DNA of 60,058 bases. Source: Patescibacteria group bacterium (GTDB lineage: Bacteria > Patescibacteriota > Minisyncoccia > UBA6257 > UBA9933). Location of the stretch: the NCBI GenBank assembly GCA_038062875.1, contig JBBTWF010000007.1:1-60058 (forward strand), written 5' to 3'. The notes below the pieces were generated by a model that had not been told where the DNA came from, ran no database searches, and saw nothing but the letters and a program-made list of their open reading frames with translations. Each line of letters starts with the position of its first letter. The stretch's first letter is position 1. Of the stretch, positions 30,428-53,120 are shown one piece after another. The position numbers and the translations under genes were made by a program.

Positions 30428-30689
30428 GCGGAAAATCTTTCCGCAGTGAGTAAAAATACGAATAAATCTTTTCGCAGCCAGCATGTTTAATCAACAAAGG
30501 AAAAATCTTTTCGCAGTGAGTATTGCGGAGCCGAATAGAAAATCTCTGAGCGAATAGAGAAAATACAGGGTACCCGCGTAGCAGGGTGGTATTTTCTCGT
30601 TATGAGCGAAGTTTGATTTTCATTCGGCGGAGCACCTACGAACGAGAAAAGATTTTTCCTTTGTTGGCTGGCGAGAAAAGATTTTCCGC
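30428..30689. mobile_element. Nested MITE-like palindromic element, copy 2
   Basis: Outer IR GCGGAAAATCTTT/AAAGATTTTCCGC; inner perfect 21-bp IR at 30492-30512 / 30646-30666; shares GTGAGTATTGC and CCTACGAACGAG with the other copies. Confidence 0.75.
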
Positions 30690-47264: not shown

Positions 47265-47294
47265 AAATATATAAAGTTTTGTTTTTGCTATTTC

Positions 47295-47422
47295 CGATAA
47301 TGTATCCGAGTATGCGAAGTTTTCGCGACTAAAAGGAGCAAAAATTTTGGCGAAGATAAAATTCAACTCATTAATGTAATGTAAAAATGAATTTTATCGT
47401 AGCCGTATATTCGGTGTTAGGC
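47295..47422 (-). repeat. attC-like site (distal; R' degenerate, ATTATCG)
   Basis: Minus-strand R'' GCCTAAC just after the cassette stop; imperfect palindrome sharing the CGAAGTT...AATTT-GG core with the other sites. Confidence 0.7.
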
Positions 47423-47440
47423 GTTGTAAGGATCGGCGAT

Positions 47441-47788
47441 TTATGCTTTTTTAAACTTTGTATTATATATACTAACAAGTAAGTATGCAACAATAATGTT
47501 AAAATAAAAAGTGTTAAAGTCAATGCTCTCACATGAATTTTTATCGGAAATTAATGCTGGTATAGGATATAGTAAATCTAGAATATAATCCAAAAAGTTA
47601 GAGCACGCCCCTGATGGGTTTAAGATTTTTACTATTGGAACATGGACAGAATATGATCCAGGGCACCCTCCAATGGCATCGCAAAAAGGACTCCCATAGT
47701 TTATCCAAAATACTGGTAAAACCAGAAGCAGTAATAAAGTTAAGTATATTTTTGATTTATTCGGTTTAAAAAATTCTTTCCAATTCAT
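47441..47788 (-). CDS. Cassette 5: small membrane protein
   Basis: Two transmembrane helices with a Cys-containing loop; lies between attC-like sites. Confidence 0.75.
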   Translation of the reverse strand: MNWKEFFKPNKSKIYLTLLLLLVLPVFWINYGSPFCDAIGGCPGSYSVHVPIVKILNPSGACSNFLDYILDLLYPIPALISDKNSCESIDFNTFYFNIIVAYLLVSIYNTKFKKA

Positions 47789-47848
47789 AAACTTAATAAT
47801 TTATTAACTAAATATAACTTCTCTACTTATTAAGCCGAGCCTTATTTC

Positions 47849-47948
47849 GCCTAACGTTAGGGATATACGAAGTTTTTCTGGAACGAAGTGGAAGAAAAAT
47901 TTGGGTGAAGCCCGAGCCGAGGGCTGAACCGTATATCCCTTGTTATAC
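47849..47948 (-). repeat. attC-like site
   Basis: GCCTAAC-gtt-AGGGATATACG...CGTATATCCCT-t-GTTATAC. Confidence 0.85.
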
Positions 47949-48046
47949 GCCCCGACGACTGAAAGGAGGAGAGCGCAGCGTGGTTCGAGCGATAGCGAGA
48001 AAGTCCGCCTCCGCCCGCCGATTATTTTAATTTTATAAACTCTTTA

Positions 48047-48895
48047 CTATTTGTTCAATAATTTCTTTTGTTCTTCTTGAAAATAATTACAATTACCGCC
48101 TGGACGATATTCTTGTGTTTTGCTTAATTTTACAGCTCCCAAGCAATTGTCCTTTAAAGATAAATTAAATTCATCAATAATTTTTCCACAGAGATTTTCA
48201 TCGCAAAGCTGACTCGCAGCCGAAGAGTAGCATTCGTTTTTAGCAGTTTGACCGATAATTTTTTCACAAATATTTGGATTTTTCCATGTATCTAAATGTG
48301 CATAGCACCAATCTCTATTTTCCTGCTCACCCAATTGGTCGCAATAATTTGAATTTAGTGCTCCTGCAGTTGATTGAGATTTTCTTACTGCAACCAGACC
48401 TAAACATTTGCTCGCTTCATCATTGTCTAGGATTTTATTACAAATCTGTGGGTCAACATTATATTCTGCTAAATTATAGTAGCAGGAATCAGCTGTTTCT
48501 GAATTAACAACTTTTTCACAAAGAAGATGTTTGGAATAACACATATCCTTTAGGCGAGCATCGCCTTTTGTTTCTAAATTACATTCATATGTCGTAGTAA
48601 AACTGAAAGCATAAAAACTTATAGAAACAGTTAGAATTAATATTAAAAATATCCAAAATATATTTGAAGAGCTTTGGACAGAAACACTTTCCTTTTTAAA
48701 GACTAAAGTTATCCAACCTATTGTTCCACCCAATATTGTGGAAAAGGTCATTATTAGCGTTTTAAGTATATATGAATCAAAAGCAAGAAAAAATCTAAAA
48801 ATGCGAAGAATGTCATAGTACAAAAAAGTGCTCAAAAACACTCCGAGGGCAAAGCCGATGACAGAACCTAAAAGGATTGTTTTAAATTTGTTCAT
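48047..48895 (-). CDS. Cassette 4: membrane protein with Cys-rich helical repeats
   Basis: Three transmembrane helices, then repeated C..I......D.CY units. Confidence 0.8.
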   Translation of the reverse strand: MNKFKTILLGSVIGFALGVFLSTFLYYDILRIFRFFLAFDSYILKTLIMTFSTILGGTIGWITLVFKKESVSVQSSSNIFWIFLILILTVSISFYAFSFTTTYECNLETKGDARLKDMCYSKHLLCEKVVNSETADSCYYNLAEYNVDPQICNKILDNDEASKCLGLVAVRKSQSTAGALNSNYCDQLGEQENRDWCYAHLDTWKNPNICEKIIGQTAKNECYSSAASQLCDENLCGKIIDEFNLSLKDNCLGAVKLSKTQEYRPGGNCNYFQEEQKKLLNK

Positions 48896-48957
48896 AAATC
48901 TGATTAATTATTAAAGTTTATAAAATTTTCTTTTTAAGGCGAGCGGAGGCGGATTGC

Positions 48958-48977
48958 GTTTAACTCGTTATTAAGTG
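48958..48977 (-). repeat. Truncated att site (attI-like fragment replacing attC)
   Basis: TAACTCGTTATTA is identical to the attI-like core at 52174-52186. Confidence 0.7.
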
Positions 48978-49058
48978 ACCCGAACGAAGCGTAGCGGAGT
49001 GAGAGCGCAGCGTGGCAAGGATTTTTTGAAGAAAAATCCGCAGAGTTCCGAACGCCGC

Positions 49059-49619
49059 CTATTTCATAGGTTGTATTTTCAGAATTGCACTATCAATTAT
49101 CTTTTGTGGTATCTCTGGTATAATTTTATTGGTCACATAATATTCTGATGATTGATCTGGTTTTTCATAATAATCTAACCCCCAAAAATAATTGCCATAT
49201 TGGACTATATGACTAAATTTTAATTTTTCATCTTCTGTTTTATATACACTAACTAATACATTTTTGTCAGATATTTGAGTTTCAAAAAAATTTATATTTG
49301 TTTTTGACCAAGCTTTTTTTAGGTCGTCATAACCCGTTTTCTTATATCCCTGTATATCCGTAGGAGTAGTATCTTGAATATTTAGATATGTAATTCGTAT
49401 AACCTCTTCACCTTCGTTATTTGTTCCTTGAAGGAAATTATTTGGCATCTTCTGAATGGAATAATCCTTCGGGTACTGAAATGCAATTACATTATCTTCA
49501 TATTGCTTCCATGTCTCTTTTGATTCTCGGTTTTGGGTATAGTTTATTAGGACAATTCCAATTAACAATATGCAAAATAGGAAGATTATTATAAATTTTT
49601 TTGAAATTAAGGTTCCCAT
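49059..49619 (-). CDS. Cassette 3: membrane-anchored PsbP-like protein
   Basis: N-terminal transmembrane helix, WKQY......FQYP.D motif. Confidence 0.7.
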   Translation of the reverse strand: MGTLISKKFIIIFLFCILLIGIVLINYTQNRESKETWKQYEDNVIAFQYPKDYSIQKMPNNFLQGTNNEGEEVIRITYLNIQDTTPTDIQGYKKTGYDDLKKAWSKTNINFFETQISDKNVLVSVYKTEDEKLKFSHIVQYGNYFWGLDYYEKPDQSSEYYVTNKIIPEIPQKIIDSAILKIQPMK

Positions 49620-49681
49620 ATATTTGATTTGTTAATAGTAATATATAAACTTTACTTTTTAAAGGCGGGGTTTGGAATTTC

Positions 49682-49810
49682 ACTTAACGTTAGGCATATC
49701 CGAAGTTTTTGCGTAATGAAATGAAGCAAAAATTTGGGTGAAAGAATTTTTTACTCCTTATCGAAATATATTTGATGAAAAATTCTTGAACCGGATATGC
49801 CTTGTTATGT
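49682..49810 (-). repeat. attC-like site
   Basis: ACTTAAC-gtt-AGGCATATCCG...CGGATATGCCT-t-GTTATGT. Confidence 0.85.
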
Positions 49811-49994
49811 GATGTAAATTTTTTTCTTTTTTTATTTTTTTCAATTTGCTTTTATTCTAAAATAATAAATAAGTTTTTCGTTTTTGATTTTGGGCAGAGG
49901 GGTTAAGGGTGAATGCCCAAAATCAAAAACTCCTTATTATTTCTAAACTGCAAATTCTTTTTGTTCTTCGGCAATTTCACGGATTATTTAAGTT

Positions 49995-50261
49995 TTACGT
50001 AACAATTTCCATAGAAAGCACGGAACTTAAAAAATAATATACATAACACAAGATTGAAAGCAATAAATATAAAAAAAGAATTTTTTTGCTTTTAACATAA
50101 TGACGAATTACAAAAAACAAAACAATTATTACTATTAAAGGGATAAAAGTAAAGAGTATCCCATGATAATTTACAGATTGTAGACGTTCATTCCAGAAAT
50201 TTCTTTGAATTAAATCAGTAAAAGAGTTCGGAGGATAATTAGTATCGTATGGACTTGTCAT
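49995..50261 (-). CDS. Cassette 2, second ORF: small two-helix membrane protein
   Basis: Hydrophobic C-terminal half. Confidence 0.6.
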   Translation of the reverse strand: MTSPYDTNYPPNSFTDLIQRNFWNERLQSVNYHGILFTFIPLIVIIVLFFVIRHYVKSKKILFLYLLLSILCYVYYFLSSVLSMEIVT

Positions 50262-50311
50262 GTGTTTAATTTAAACAATGATTTTTTAAAATAAAAAAGA
50301 TTGAAATCATT

Positions 50312-51751
50312 TTATTTATTTATACAATCGTCGGGACAGCTATCTTTATTTTCACCTTGATACTTATTGCATATATTATCTCCGCAAACTTCATTAATTC
50401 TTCCCATTAAGTAAATTTTATGCGAGTCGCCAACATCGCAGTTATATGTAGCCCCATAATGTATATTAACTGGATATTCTCCAAAATATTCTTTTTCACA
50501 GCTTTTGCAGTCATCAGGGCAAGAGCCTGTTTCAAATTCTTTATCACCGCATATGGTATTTCCGCACTCTTCATTAAGAATTAAATCATTCGGAATAATA
50601 TAATTCTCCATTATCCAGCTAACGCTTTTTCTTTTTAATCCTTTGGGGTCTTTTTCAAAATAGTAATCCCATACTTTTTTTGCTGTTTCAAATCGGTCAG
50701 CTGCATAATCTTCAAGATGCGCAATAAAACCGCAAACCTCATCAGATGATGCTTTGTCACATTCTTCCACATTTATTTTCCAATCATCATTTAAATAACC
50801 AGAACGGACATTAATTCTGTATATTTTATGATTATTAAAAGTGTCAACTGCAACTTTTGAAGTTCTACCGTCAGCCCATGGATCAACCTTAAGGGAATCA
50901 AGTTCATATATATGTCCTGTTGGCATTTCACTTTTAAGCGCCATTACTCCGGATTTTACTGTGTGCGGATAGGCGAGTTTATTAAATCTCACATACGCTT
51001 CATCAAATGTTCCTAAATAAGGGTCTGTTTGATTTAGATAAAAAGGAAATCTATTTCCAAAAAATTTTTTATACACTTCAATTGCTATTTCTTCAGGAAG
51101 ATTAGAATAACCATCCCATCCCGCATGATTAGCGCTGTGGTGTTCTATTGCTATTTCATGTCCATTTTCTTGCCATTCTCTGACTTTGTTAGTTTTAATT
51201 GGATCTGCCAAAATCATATCAATCCACTGGATATGAAATCCTAATGTAAGTTTTGTGTTGTAAGAGTCAGCAAGATTAATTAATTTTTCAAGTACACCAA
51301 ACATTCCATTATTTGCCGATTCTGGATGTATATGAAGGTTAAAGAAAAGATAAGGGGTGCCTGACAATTCTTCTTTGCATTCTCCAGAATAATCTTGTGA
51401 AGTTTTTGCACTCTGCCTCAAACAATCATTATTATAAGTTTTTCCATCACAGCCACAAACAGGCTTAGAATCTAAAGGGCAATCTGTTGGAGCTATTATG
51501 CATTTACCTTCTGCATCACCACACGATTTGAAATTACAATAGCTATTAGTTTTACAATCTTTATCAGATTTGCAGGATCTTAGTAATAAATTTTGGAAAA
51601 AATTATCTTTTTTTCCTGAGGCAGCTGATTGTTGATATGTGTCAAGCCGTAAGGATATTGAACCTGACCAAATAAAAGTCGCGGATATTCCCAAAATAAA
51701 AGCTGTGATGAAAATAACGTACCATTTATTGTTTTTGATTTTGTTTATCAT
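50312..51751 (-). CDS. Cassette 2: membrane-anchored protein with Kazal-like domain and polysaccharide-deacetylase-like domain
   Basis: PVCGCDGKTYNNDC (Kazal-like); WQENGHEIAIEHH; C-terminal CG...C...E...CP.DC repeats. Confidence 0.75.
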   Translation of the reverse strand: MINKIKNNKWYVIFITAFILGISATFIWSGSISLRLDTYQQSAASGKKDNFFQNLLLRSCKSDKDCKTNSYCNFKSCGDAEGKCIIAPTDCPLDSKPVCGCDGKTYNNDCLRQSAKTSQDYSGECKEELSGTPYLFFNLHIHPESANNGMFGVLEKLINLADSYNTKLTLGFHIQWIDMILADPIKTNKVREWQENGHEIAIEHHSANHAGWDGYSNLPEEIAIEVYKKFFGNRFPFYLNQTDPYLGTFDEAYVRFNKLAYPHTVKSGVMALKSEMPTGHIYELDSLKVDPWADGRTSKVAVDTFNNHKIYRINVRSGYLNDDWKINVEECDKASSDEVCGFIAHLEDYAADRFETAKKVWDYYFEKDPKGLKRKSVSWIMENYIIPNDLILNEECGNTICGDKEFETGSCPDDCKSCEKEYFGEYPVNIHYGATYNCDVGDSHKIYLMGRINEVCGDNICNKYQGENKDSCPDDCINK

Positions 51752-51802
51752 AGGTTTTTGTTATGTAAATTTAAAAAATAAAATTAATAAAAAAGTTATT
51801 TC

Positions 51803-51880
51803 ACATAACGTTTCGGCATCATCCGAAGTTGCGTAGCAATTTGGGTGGAGCGAAGCGGAACTGGATATGCCGTGTTATCG
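51803..51880 (-). repeat. attC-like site (proximal)
   Basis: ACATAAC-gttt-CGGCATcATCC...GGATATGCCG-t-GTTATCG. Confidence 0.85.
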
Positions 51881-51898
51881 GATGTAAAAATTTGAAAT

Positions 51899-52144
51899 CT
51901 ATTTTTTCCGCAAAGAAACAATAATGCTTGACAGCACAAATCCACTGAAAATTGATATGACCAAAAAAATTATATTGCCAGAAAACGATAAAGGACTGCA
52001 AACCTCCGGACAACGACTATATAGAAATGAATACGAAAATGTTGATAAAAGTATGTGGCTGGGTAGTAAATAAAGGGTTAGAAATATAAAAGACAGAGAA
52101 ACGAATATTATCGTAAATATAATTTTTTGTTTTAAATGGTTCAT
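51899..52144 (-). CDS. Cassette 1: small two-helix membrane protein
   Basis: Two transmembrane helices with a CxxxC loop; first cassette after attI. Confidence 0.7.
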   Translation of the reverse strand: MNHLKQKIIFTIIFVSLSFIFLTLYLLPSHILLSTFSYSFLYSRCPEVCSPLSFSGNIIFLVISIFSGFVLSSIIVSLRKK

Positions 52145-52170
52145 AAAAATAGATTTTAAATTTTTATTTC

Positions 52171-52235
52171 CGATAACTCGTTATTATGCGAAGTGTTTGC
52201 GCAAAAACGACCTTTATTTGTATGTTATGCGAAGT
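52171..52235 (-). other. attI-like recombination site
   Basis: Minus-strand core GTTATCG with adjacent inverted half-site (ATAAC-GA-GTTAT); direct repeats TTATGCGAAGT at 52184-52194 and 52225-52235; no long hairpin; next to the integrase 5' end. Confidence 0.75.
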
Positions 52236-52292: not shown

Positions 52293-53120
52293 ATGCAACC
52301 ATTATTAGAAAGAACAAGGCAAGAATTAAAATTAAGGAATTACAGCCCAAAAACGATTAAAAGTTATCTTTATTACATTAAAGAGTATTTATTATTTGCA
52401 AAACGCGCTAAAGAGCAAAATAAATCAAAAGAAGAAGCGATTAGAGAATTTTTGTTAAATAAACAAGACAAGGGATTTTCCAGCCAAACCACTAATTTAT
52501 GCCTTAACGCCATAAAATTTTTTTATCGGGAAATTATAAAATCGCAAGATAAAATAGACATTAAATTCGCCAAAAGATCGCAAAAATTGCCAGTAGTCCT
52601 ATCGCGAGAAGAAATCAGAAAAATAATAGAAACGCTATCTAATGATAAGCATAAATTATTAATTGCTTTGGCTTACGGCGCTGGTTTACGAGTAAGCGAA
52701 GCGACAAACTTAAAAGTAAAAGATATTAATATTGAAGAACTGACTATTCATCTTAAAGACGCAAAAGGTAAAAAAGATAGAATTACGATTTTTCCTGAAA
52801 AGATAAAATCTGATATTATAAATATAGTATCTGGCAGAGATAAAAACAGCTATGTTTTTGAAAGCGAACGAGGTGGGAAACTAACTGAACGTACCGCGCA
52901 GAAAGTTTTTGAAAACGCGCTTAAAAAATCAAACATCCAAAAAGATGCGACCTTCCATTCGCTCCGTCATAGTTTTGCTACGCATTTACTGGAAAACGGA
53001 GTTGATGTTAGATATGTTCAAGAATTATTAGGACATCAAAATATCAGAACCACACAATTATATACTCAGGTAACAAACCCGAGTATTAAAAAAATAAAAA
53101 GCCCGTTAGATAATTTATGA
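52293..53120 (+). CDS. Integron-associated tyrosine recombinase (short, lacks the IntI-specific insertion)
   Basis: LRNYSPKTIKSY N-terminal SAM-like domain, KLPVVLSREE, YGAGLRVSE, KGKKDR, HSLRHSFATHLLE, LLGH...TTQLY. Confidence 0.88.
   Translation: MQPLLERTRQELKLRNYSPKTIKSYLYYIKEYLLFAKRAKEQNKSKEEAIREFLLNKQDKGFSSQTTNLCLNAIKFFYREIIKSQDKIDIKFAKRSQKLPVVLSREEIRKIIETLSNDKHKLLIALAYGAGLRVSEATNLKVKDINIEELTIHLKDAKGKKDRITIFPEKIKSDIINIVSGRDKNSYVFESERGGKLTERTAQKVFENALKKSNIQKDATFHSLRHSFATHLLENGVDVRYVQELLGHQNIRTTQLYTQVTNPSIKKIKSPLDNL

Follow-up and report, generated by a model that had tools for sequence, protein, structure and literature searches.

Integron biology is built on a short folded attC site that is read by an integrase with a special helix. 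Modules of the pdif type use short double-stranded sites of alternating orientation, and have no hairpin attC, integrase-adjacent array, or module-specific extension. Classical attC sites are given a total length of 57-141 bp (PMC5027507); the pdif modules of Acinetobacter plasmids carry genes between inverted Xer-type recombinase-binding sites (PMC7399989); Delta-attI-type cassettes of mobile integrons have an attI remnant in place of an attC within the array (PMC12901181); and, in CTX-phi-type elements, a Xer recombinase without the integron insert exchanges one strand pair between folded single-stranded DNA and a double-stranded DNA site, the product being resolved by replication (PMC3442271). 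Here, an array of gene cassettes is described in a 60,058-nt window (the whole stretch of DNA analyzed, positions 1 to 60,058 of contig JBBTWF010000007.1, assembly GCA_038062875.1) from a Patescibacteria group bacterium. Its cassettes are bracketed by extended, cassette-specific terminal inverted repeats, and the safest, anatomical statement is that the attC of each cassette is a long imperfect palindrome split by the crossover. A literature search found no description of integrons or attC arrays in Patescibacteria/CPR (candidate phyla radiation), or of extended cassette-specific stems, although supplementary files might hold such cases, and the phylum Patescibacteria is not mentioned in the accessible part of a survey of integron distribution (PMC9024848).

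As in classical integrons, the integrase gene points away from an array that runs in one direction, and the binding arm is repeated within attI. The attC hairpins likewise combine AAC/GTT cores and R and L boxes with an unpaired spacer and a variable tip, their structure being conserved over sequence, and each cassette start is complementary to its own attC and not to that of the neighbor. However, the integrase of the array is without the IntI-specific insert and falls below the family cut-off, the R arm is conserved over about 12 nt instead of 7, the stem runs 10-70 bp further, a 2-nt mismatch is fixed outside the R box, and the extra unpaired bases lie on the other arm. As in the Xer systems of CTX-phi, the attI reads as arm, 7-nt spacer, and arm, whereas the recombinase is a dedicated paralogue and the mobilized units are gene cassettes in an array, not phages. 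Likewise, genes are bracketed by inverted Xer-type recombinase-binding sites, as in pdif modules, but the array sites here have a single orientation and are 70-200-nt hairpins, which sets them apart from pdif.

Extended inverted repeats at the cassette ends

The region is an integron-like array. An attI-like site lies beside the integrase gene and, leftward of it, five cassettes form a divergent, one-direction series, as in integrons, with all open reading frames (ORFs) on the minus strand and pointing away from the integrase. An earlier note on this DNA had held that every cassette is bracketed by its own inverted repeats, complementary well beyond the 7-bp core, and all five pairs are indeed found where it had placed them and are longer than it had reported. 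In cassette 1, the arms pair over 36 nt (51871-51906 with 52145-52180, 89%; 30/33 over the span given previously), the left arm (51874-51906, on the 3' side of the ORF at 51899-52144) overlapping the stop codon by 8 nt and the right arm (52145-52177) adjoining the ATG at 52144. In cassette 2, where 21 nt had been given, 49804-49840 pairs with 51773-51809 over 37 nt (81%, ungapped), and the arms extend to 49804-49847 and 51767-51809 with 35/44 matches when one gap is admitted. Those of cassette 5 (47416-47437 and 47834-47855) measure 22 nt (82%, 18/22) and, beyond nt 12, reach a score of 7.5, which is matched or exceeded by 0.74% of non-cognate pairs.

The left arms of cassettes 3 and 4 are interrupted. 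That of cassette 3 has a proximal 9 nt (48970-48978), a 66-nt insertion after position 9 (48979-49044), and a distal part (49045-49060) that matches 49663-49678 at 13/16 positions, a pairing on which, together with the sequence itself, the delimitation of the right arm (49663-49688) is based. In cassette 4, the proximal 9 nt (47942-47950) are followed by a 53-nt insertion, again after position 9 (47951-48003), and by a distal part (48004-48052) that forms a 49-nt gapped repeat with 48906-48953 of the right arm (48906-48964), including 15/16 matches over a GC-rich core. Thus, the pairing of these GC-rich arms, as noted before, is real, although it is not contiguous with the core, from which it is separated by the insertions.

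When the best ungapped repeat was compared with those of 300 dinucleotide shuffles of the 120-nt ends, none of the 300 reached it for cassettes 1, 2, and 4, and the observed score was reached in 9/300 for cassette 3 and 8/300 for cassette 5, both of which are individually marginal. Moreover, a scan of the 60-kb window yielded 78,470 GTT...AAC pairs 150-4500 nt apart, only six of them with an anchored score of at least 12, namely those of cassettes 5, 2, and 1 (12.0, 19.5, and 25.5) and three others at 12-12.5. The repeats begin at the G of the right-hand core and at the C of the next left-hand core, and are therefore continuous with the R box.

Generality was assessed from the ungapped complementarity beyond nt 12, comparing cognate ends with all non-cognate combinations over intervals between consecutive attC sites or between an attC site and attI. 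Among integrase-linked loci, 17/39 cognate intervals lay above the 99th percentile of 1482 non-cognate pairs, and an independent set of 12 arrays from other genomes of the phylum, retrieved through the attC model described below, gave 16/43 above the 99th percentile of 1806 such pairs. The repeats are thus specific to each cassette, and they recur beside homologous integrases, both as had been anticipated. When the best reverse-complement partner of each left arm was searched for blindly, it fell at the next attC or attI, with repeat lengths of 86, 77, 76, 75, 71, 63, and 60 nt. A separate alignment with cheap gaps, which over-extends in AT-rich DNA, served for locating partners and not for lengths. 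Under a stricter Smith-Waterman criterion, contiguous repeats of 33-83 nt (median 59) were found in 14 of 81 distinct cassettes, and in a further 7/81 the repeat resumes past a 47-67-nt insertion. This criterion is conservative and blind to extensions of 10-14 nt, so the remaining 60/81 are not a count of cassettes devoid of arms.

Related systems provide the contrast. Five cassettes of class 1 integrons from two plasmids show complementarity over 8, 10, 11, 12, and 13-16 nt; hence, the statement of the earlier note that only the cores are complementary in classical cassettes is right in that the pairing is much shorter there, but too strict. Arrays of Bacteroidota (L017, L019, L021, and L026), whose integrases are 35-46% identical to that of the window, also have attC-like hairpins and cognate arms with a fixed G/A mismatch at position 11, the only fixed one, but the complementarity at their attC borders ends at 9-16 nt, and in L017, L019, and L026 the array lies downstream of the integrase. 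The proposal of the earlier note would have been refuted if extended repeats were absent from homologous arrays or equally common in classical ones; the extension is present in the former and absent from the latter. Extended repeats are, therefore, real and general in the lineage.

Recombination sites and integrase of the array

The attI-like site (52166-52235, plus strand) reads as an 11-7-11 layout, with an R arm at 52166-52176, a 7-nt spacer at 52177-52183, and an L arm at 52184-52194. The L arm occurs again, as a direct copy, at 52225-52235. The Xer/dif core consists of two arms of about 11 bp around 6-8 bp, and the array sites may resemble dif in layout. The layout is retained upstream of most homologous integrases, and the attI-like site gives a weak partial match (12.6 bits) to the attC model.

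Three inter-cassette regions and the distal array end fold as attC-like hairpins. A covariance model (R1), built from nine sites of the window and five related loci, scores these four sites at 67.7-101.1 bits on the integrase strand and at 10-20 bits on the opposite one. All lie on the plus strand: the hairpin between cassettes 2 and 1 (51798-51885, 81.1 bits) folds with R and L boxes; that between cassettes 3 and 2 (49677-49815) reaches 101.1 bits, against 20.4 on the minus strand, with a fold z-score of -7.4 on the plus strand; that between cassettes 5 and 4 (47844-47953, 99.3 bits) also folds; and the distal attC at the array end (47290-47427, 67.7 bits) is partly degenerate, its left core being AAT instead of AAC. 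The model detects 80 sites in 32 sources and matches 25 of 151 sampled genomes of the phylum, representing 24 of 131 genera; all matches with E < 0.001 are on the integrase strand, once loci are oriented by their integrase. In the alignment, 95% of cells are paired, 9/11 L-box pairs vary on both sides, and 235 cells are doubly changed, compared with 71.7 ± 6.2 after shuffling (0/500 shuffles reach the observed value), in an alignment that was itself fitted to the model. The array sites are conserved in structure, like integron attC, with which they also share the imperfect R/L-box hairpins and the AAC/GTT cores. A search of Rfam returned no family matching them.

The junction between cassettes 4 and 3 (48953-48981, plus strand) is of a simpler, attI-like kind. 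It consists of an arm, the 7-nt attI spacer, and an arm, lacks L boxes, has 13 nt in common with attI, and scores only 9.1 bits with R1. By its sequence, it looks like an attI remnant within the array, in which case cassette 3 would be without an attC interior of its own. Delta-attI-type cassettes match this junction only, and not the long arms.

Some further features of the sites are recorded here. The attC tip carries an unpaired motif, AATTTGGG (columns 127-135 of alignment A1; 47901-47909 in the window), whose G run is invariant in 9/9 seed sites; a conserved motif in the variable tip is unusual, as the same region is unconserved in classical attC. The outermost distal arm (47290-47301) is the same 12 nt as the attI-adjacent arm (52165-52176), an identity that would be expected if the distal arm were the original attI arm, yet the arms of cassette 1 should then match too. 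A 170-nt element at 30495-30663, with perfect 17-nt inverted repeat ends and AAC...GTT flanks, contains a stretch resembling the attI spacer plus L arm, and is not matched by the attC model. Small 'cassettes' of 84-300 nt with no ORF of at least 40 aa occur in L124 (5976-6059), L126 (4885-4973, reverse strand), L043 (6411-6529 and 9768-9887), and L042 (420-719), the last of which folds as a single rod (-68.5 kcal/mol), and short GC-rich attC variants are found in L043 (6344-6422) and L124 (5894-5987).

The array-linked tyrosine recombinase (52293-53120, plus strand, 275 aa) is IntI/Xer-like, with PF00589 and PF13495 domains. Its best NCBIfam match is the integron integrase family TIGR02249, at 227.7 bits under a cut-off of 265 and in two stretches, model positions 2-178 and 236-315 being aligned and 179-235, the region with the IntI-specific insert, unmatched. 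It thus falls short of what IntegronFinder and TIGR02249 demand, namely the IntI-specific additional domain (I2 helix) and a score above the cut-off. The Bacteroidota integrases of L019 and L021 show the same two-stretch match and are likewise insert-less. Scores against Xer models are also below cut-off (XerA_Arch, 218.3 bits with a cut-off of 220; XerC, 185; XerD, 177.9), and the resemblance to the Xer type, as judged from these profiles, is at the family level only. The same genome encodes a separate XerC/D-like protein, 29% identical to the array-linked integrase, which is therefore a dedicated paralogue. Its close relatives come from Patescibacteria/CPR records throughout; tyrosine recombinases of Acinetobacter plasmids (hits H2, H4, and H40) are 41-43% identical to residues 67-275, and IntI1 is 30% identical. 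Searching the cassette cargo with Pfam gave weak Kazal-like matches in a 479-aa protein and otherwise nothing useful. The host is a groundwater organism with a genome of 434 kb in 15 contigs, 82.5% complete by marker genes; the same stretch is present in eight sequencing runs from two studies, seven of which are possible sources, so that they do not constitute independent support, and they carry no information on circles.

A proposed split attC palindrome and the alternatives

The anatomy of the stem is best seen in the 32 cassettes with significant extension. Mismatches occur at position 10 in 26/32 and at position 11 in 31/32, compared with eight at position 1 and no more than five at every further position. 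The small mismatch just after the core that had been noted before is therefore real, with positions 9-12 reading ATGT in 36/82 left arms and AAAT in 53/82 right arms (as reverse complement). Cassettes 3 and 4 belong to a second class, in which a conserved left-arm insertion of 47-67 nt sits at positions 10-11 and the repeat resumes at position 12. Members of this insertion family (always at positions 10-11) are found in the window (47951-48003 and 48979-49044), L002 (762-830), L046 (4639-4700), L054 (8618-8670), and L006 (8574-8627), and related forms are common in the 11-site array of another genome (L123). None matched Rfam at the gathering score, and the one copy folded, that of cassette 4, has no stable fold (z = +0.79). 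Since mismatches pile up at the very positions where the insertion enters, the stem consists of 9 bp, an obligatory discontinuity, and a variable helix. Sequence is conserved in the arms at nt 1-4 and 8-12, and none is shared beyond nt 12. This speaks against the second integrase-binding arm that the earlier note had proposed, the conserved nucleotides representing a longer R arm; nor are the cassettes transposons with terminal inverted repeats or miniature inverted-repeat transposable elements, as only those nucleotides are shared and no direct duplications were seen at the ends.

Long arms also hold small local hairpins, differing from one another, at the same position in both arms (L047 2556-2572 and 4588-4604, with a GAA loop in both arms on the plus strand; L050 3103-3119 and 5162-5177; L048 266-283), and a long stem containing them would hold a four-way junction.

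The position of the crossover can be approached through a module that occurs in several contexts. Cassette 2 has an attC-plus-arms module that is found again in L045 and L050, with 91-93% identity over 76-88 nt of the left arm, and the proteins that it encloses in the window, L045, and L050 have no similarity to each other by blastp at 1e-5 or tblastx at 1e-6. Differences between the window copy and the other two are present in both window arms. Taken together, this is suggestive of one arm family with three members and unrelated cargo in three genomes, and it qualifies the earlier view that arms differ between cassettes, which holds in general but not for these three. In the same three contexts, the attC interior to the left of the left arm stays with the same arms, and the right-hand neighbor differs (an attC, an attI, and another site); in cassette 1, moreover, the right arm adjoins the attI spacer. 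Both observations fit the classical layout, in which an ORF has its own attC and the far core takes the crossover (AA|C on the integrase strand). Cassette 2 also contains, in its 3' untranslated region, a 19-bp hairpin (49879-49931), kept in L045 and L050, whose loop resembles a ribosome-binding-like stretch of the opposite arm.

It had also been suggested that the excised circle folds a stem. In silico, using DNA parameters, the junction of the circle folds more stably than that of the array in 12/12 cassettes, by 9.9-38.6 kcal/mol, in agreement with that suggestion. The integrase strand folds slightly better than its complement in 11/12, and non-Watson-Crick positions favor it as well, with 22 G.T versus 6 A.C in the arms and 83 versus 37 in the core helices; the integrase strand is, thus, presumably the one that folds.

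These results are probably best accounted for if the palindrome has a structural role. The 'terminal inverted repeats' would then be the outer stem of the cassette's own attC palindrome which, outward from the L box, would comprise an asymmetric unpaired spacer, a 9-bp R box, an obligatory 2-nt mismatch at positions 10-11 (or, in some cassettes, the 47-67-nt insertion in its stead), and a variable clamp helix of about 10-70 bp, the 3' side of which often reaches the stop codon. The crossover (AA|C) would fall where the R arm meets the spacer, on one side of the palindrome, and, since it lies inside the palindrome, integration would leave one half at each cassette end. This would follow the same logic as the classical relation between core and inverse core, extended from 7 bp to 20-85 bp. 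The full stem would likely be formed only by the excised circle, where the clamp could hold the AT-rich R arm duplex for the Xer-type enzyme and would favor the capture of free circles over the refolding of array sites. Such a clamp fits the stability specific to the circle, the conservation of the kink, and the precedent set by Xer recombination on folded single strands (PMC3442271). The clamp may act by stabilizing the hairpin, or it may reflect neutral growth of the palindrome.

Several points weigh against a structural role or against the strand assigned to it. The case is made here from sequence and predicted folds. About 7 of the 22 G.T positions in the arms fall at position 1, on which the wobble bias thus partly depends, and, when this position is left aside, the counts become about 15 versus 6 (two-sided p of about 0.08), while the core wobble count was made on an alignment fitted to the higher-scoring strand. 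Moreover, the strand presumed to fold has its extra unpaired bases on the 5' arm; in classical attC, according to PMC5027507, extrahelical bases are near L'' on the 3' arm, which makes the strand assignment insecure. No significant extension is seen in about half of the intervals (22/39 and 27/43), and some, but not all, of these are accounted for by insertions, by sites missed by the model (such as that between cassettes 4 and 3), or by false attI calls. Finally, the insert-less integrases of Bacteroidota manage with arms of 9-16 nt, so a long clamp is not required merely by the missing insert. The idea that the clamp compensates for the lack of the IntI insert is weakened by the same arrays (L019 and L021).

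A neutral origin of the arms, as a by-product of cassette birth or replication with no selected role, is possible, if unlikely, and it is the alternative to be taken most seriously. The arms could arise through outward growth of a quasi-palindrome by intrastrand template switching, through gene conversion between arms in the single-stranded circle, or through cargo being captured between the arm tips of a palindromic chassis that already existed. In keeping with such a footprint, the repeat tends to occupy the non-coding stretch as far as the stop codon: its length tracks that of the 3' non-coding spacer (Spearman 0.72, p = 0.0007, n = 18), its end lies within 10 nt of the stop codon in 9/18 cassettes, and its intrusion into the ORF does not exceed 14 nt, save for one case due to a spurious ORF call. 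Furthermore, one family copies a ribosome-binding-site-like stretch to its 3' end, where it has no obvious use, a single attC-plus-arms module surrounds non-homologous cargo in three genomes and carries the window-specific changes in both arms, and relatives whose integrase is of the same kind manage with no more than 9-16 nt. However, the strict 2-nt mismatch within near-perfect arms, which template switching would tend to erase, points to selection on structure near the crossover, and the chassis idea is based on a single arm family in three cassettes. As a source of the arms, promoters and terminators showed no enrichment (35 promoter-like matches versus 25.8 ± 5.1 after shuffling; 3 terminator-like matches versus 2.7 ± 1.7).

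A function at the RNA level, in which the 5' and 3' untranslated regions pair within a long transcript to form a processing or stabilizing stem, as rRNA flanks do, is improbable. The arms do lie in the 5' leader and the 3' trailer of every cassette, and the cassettes are co-directional, which makes a long transcript plausible, but complementarity sets in precisely at the crossover base and forms one continuous stretch with the R box, neither of which would be needed for an RNA stem, and the mismatches are compatible with wobble on the gene-antisense strand (22 versus 6 and 83 versus 37), becoming A.C on the mRNA.

Inversion of the cassettes, also raised in the earlier note, is very improbable. 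Each arm starts with a copy of the recombinase-binding R arm, the two copies being inverted, as in an invertible segment that the integrase could flip; however, the longest ORF is opposite to the integrase strand in 31 of the 32 listed cassettes (one of them a duplicate record), the 32nd having no ORF of at least 50 aa, the attC matches with E < 0.001 are one-stranded, and no flipped copy of a shared cassette was seen. Chance matching of AT-rich, low-complexity spacers, to which the T-rich runs of several arms and the marginal values of cassettes 3 and 5 taken alone (9/300 and 8/300) might point, has virtually no probability left, being refuted for the whole set by the shuffles (0/300 for cassettes 1, 2, and 4), the whole-window scan, and the non-cognate controls, in which cognate pairs prevailed in two independent sets with the best partner exactly at the next site.

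Meaning for integron biology

In practical terms, tools that require the IntI insert will not call such arrays integrons, and those based on an attC model of 57-141 bp will find the right cassette borders but miss most of the site. Integron biology has been framed around the short attC and the special helix of the integrase, whereas a widespread lineage dispenses with the IntI helix and uses a folded site that is several-fold longer and asymmetrically cut by the crossover. It amounts to a natural experiment on the requirements of a Xer-like enzyme for using a hairpin, and is a possible intermediate between Xer/dif systems and integrons.

The occurrence of one attC-plus-arms module with unrelated cargo in three genomes is, in addition, a rare clue to the origin of cassettes. 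A more far-reaching proposal, decidedly unlikely as it stands, is that the patescibacterial mobile unit would be a cargo-independent, rod-like palindromic chassis of 100-300 nt, made up of attC and clamp arms and obligatorily kinked at a distance of 10-11 nt from the crossover. The kink, as a mismatch or a large bulge, would take over the strand marking that is otherwise performed by the extrahelical bases and the I2 helix, and cassettes would be born by the capture of foreign DNA between the arm tips. If this were true, the unsolved birth of integron cassettes would become directly testable.

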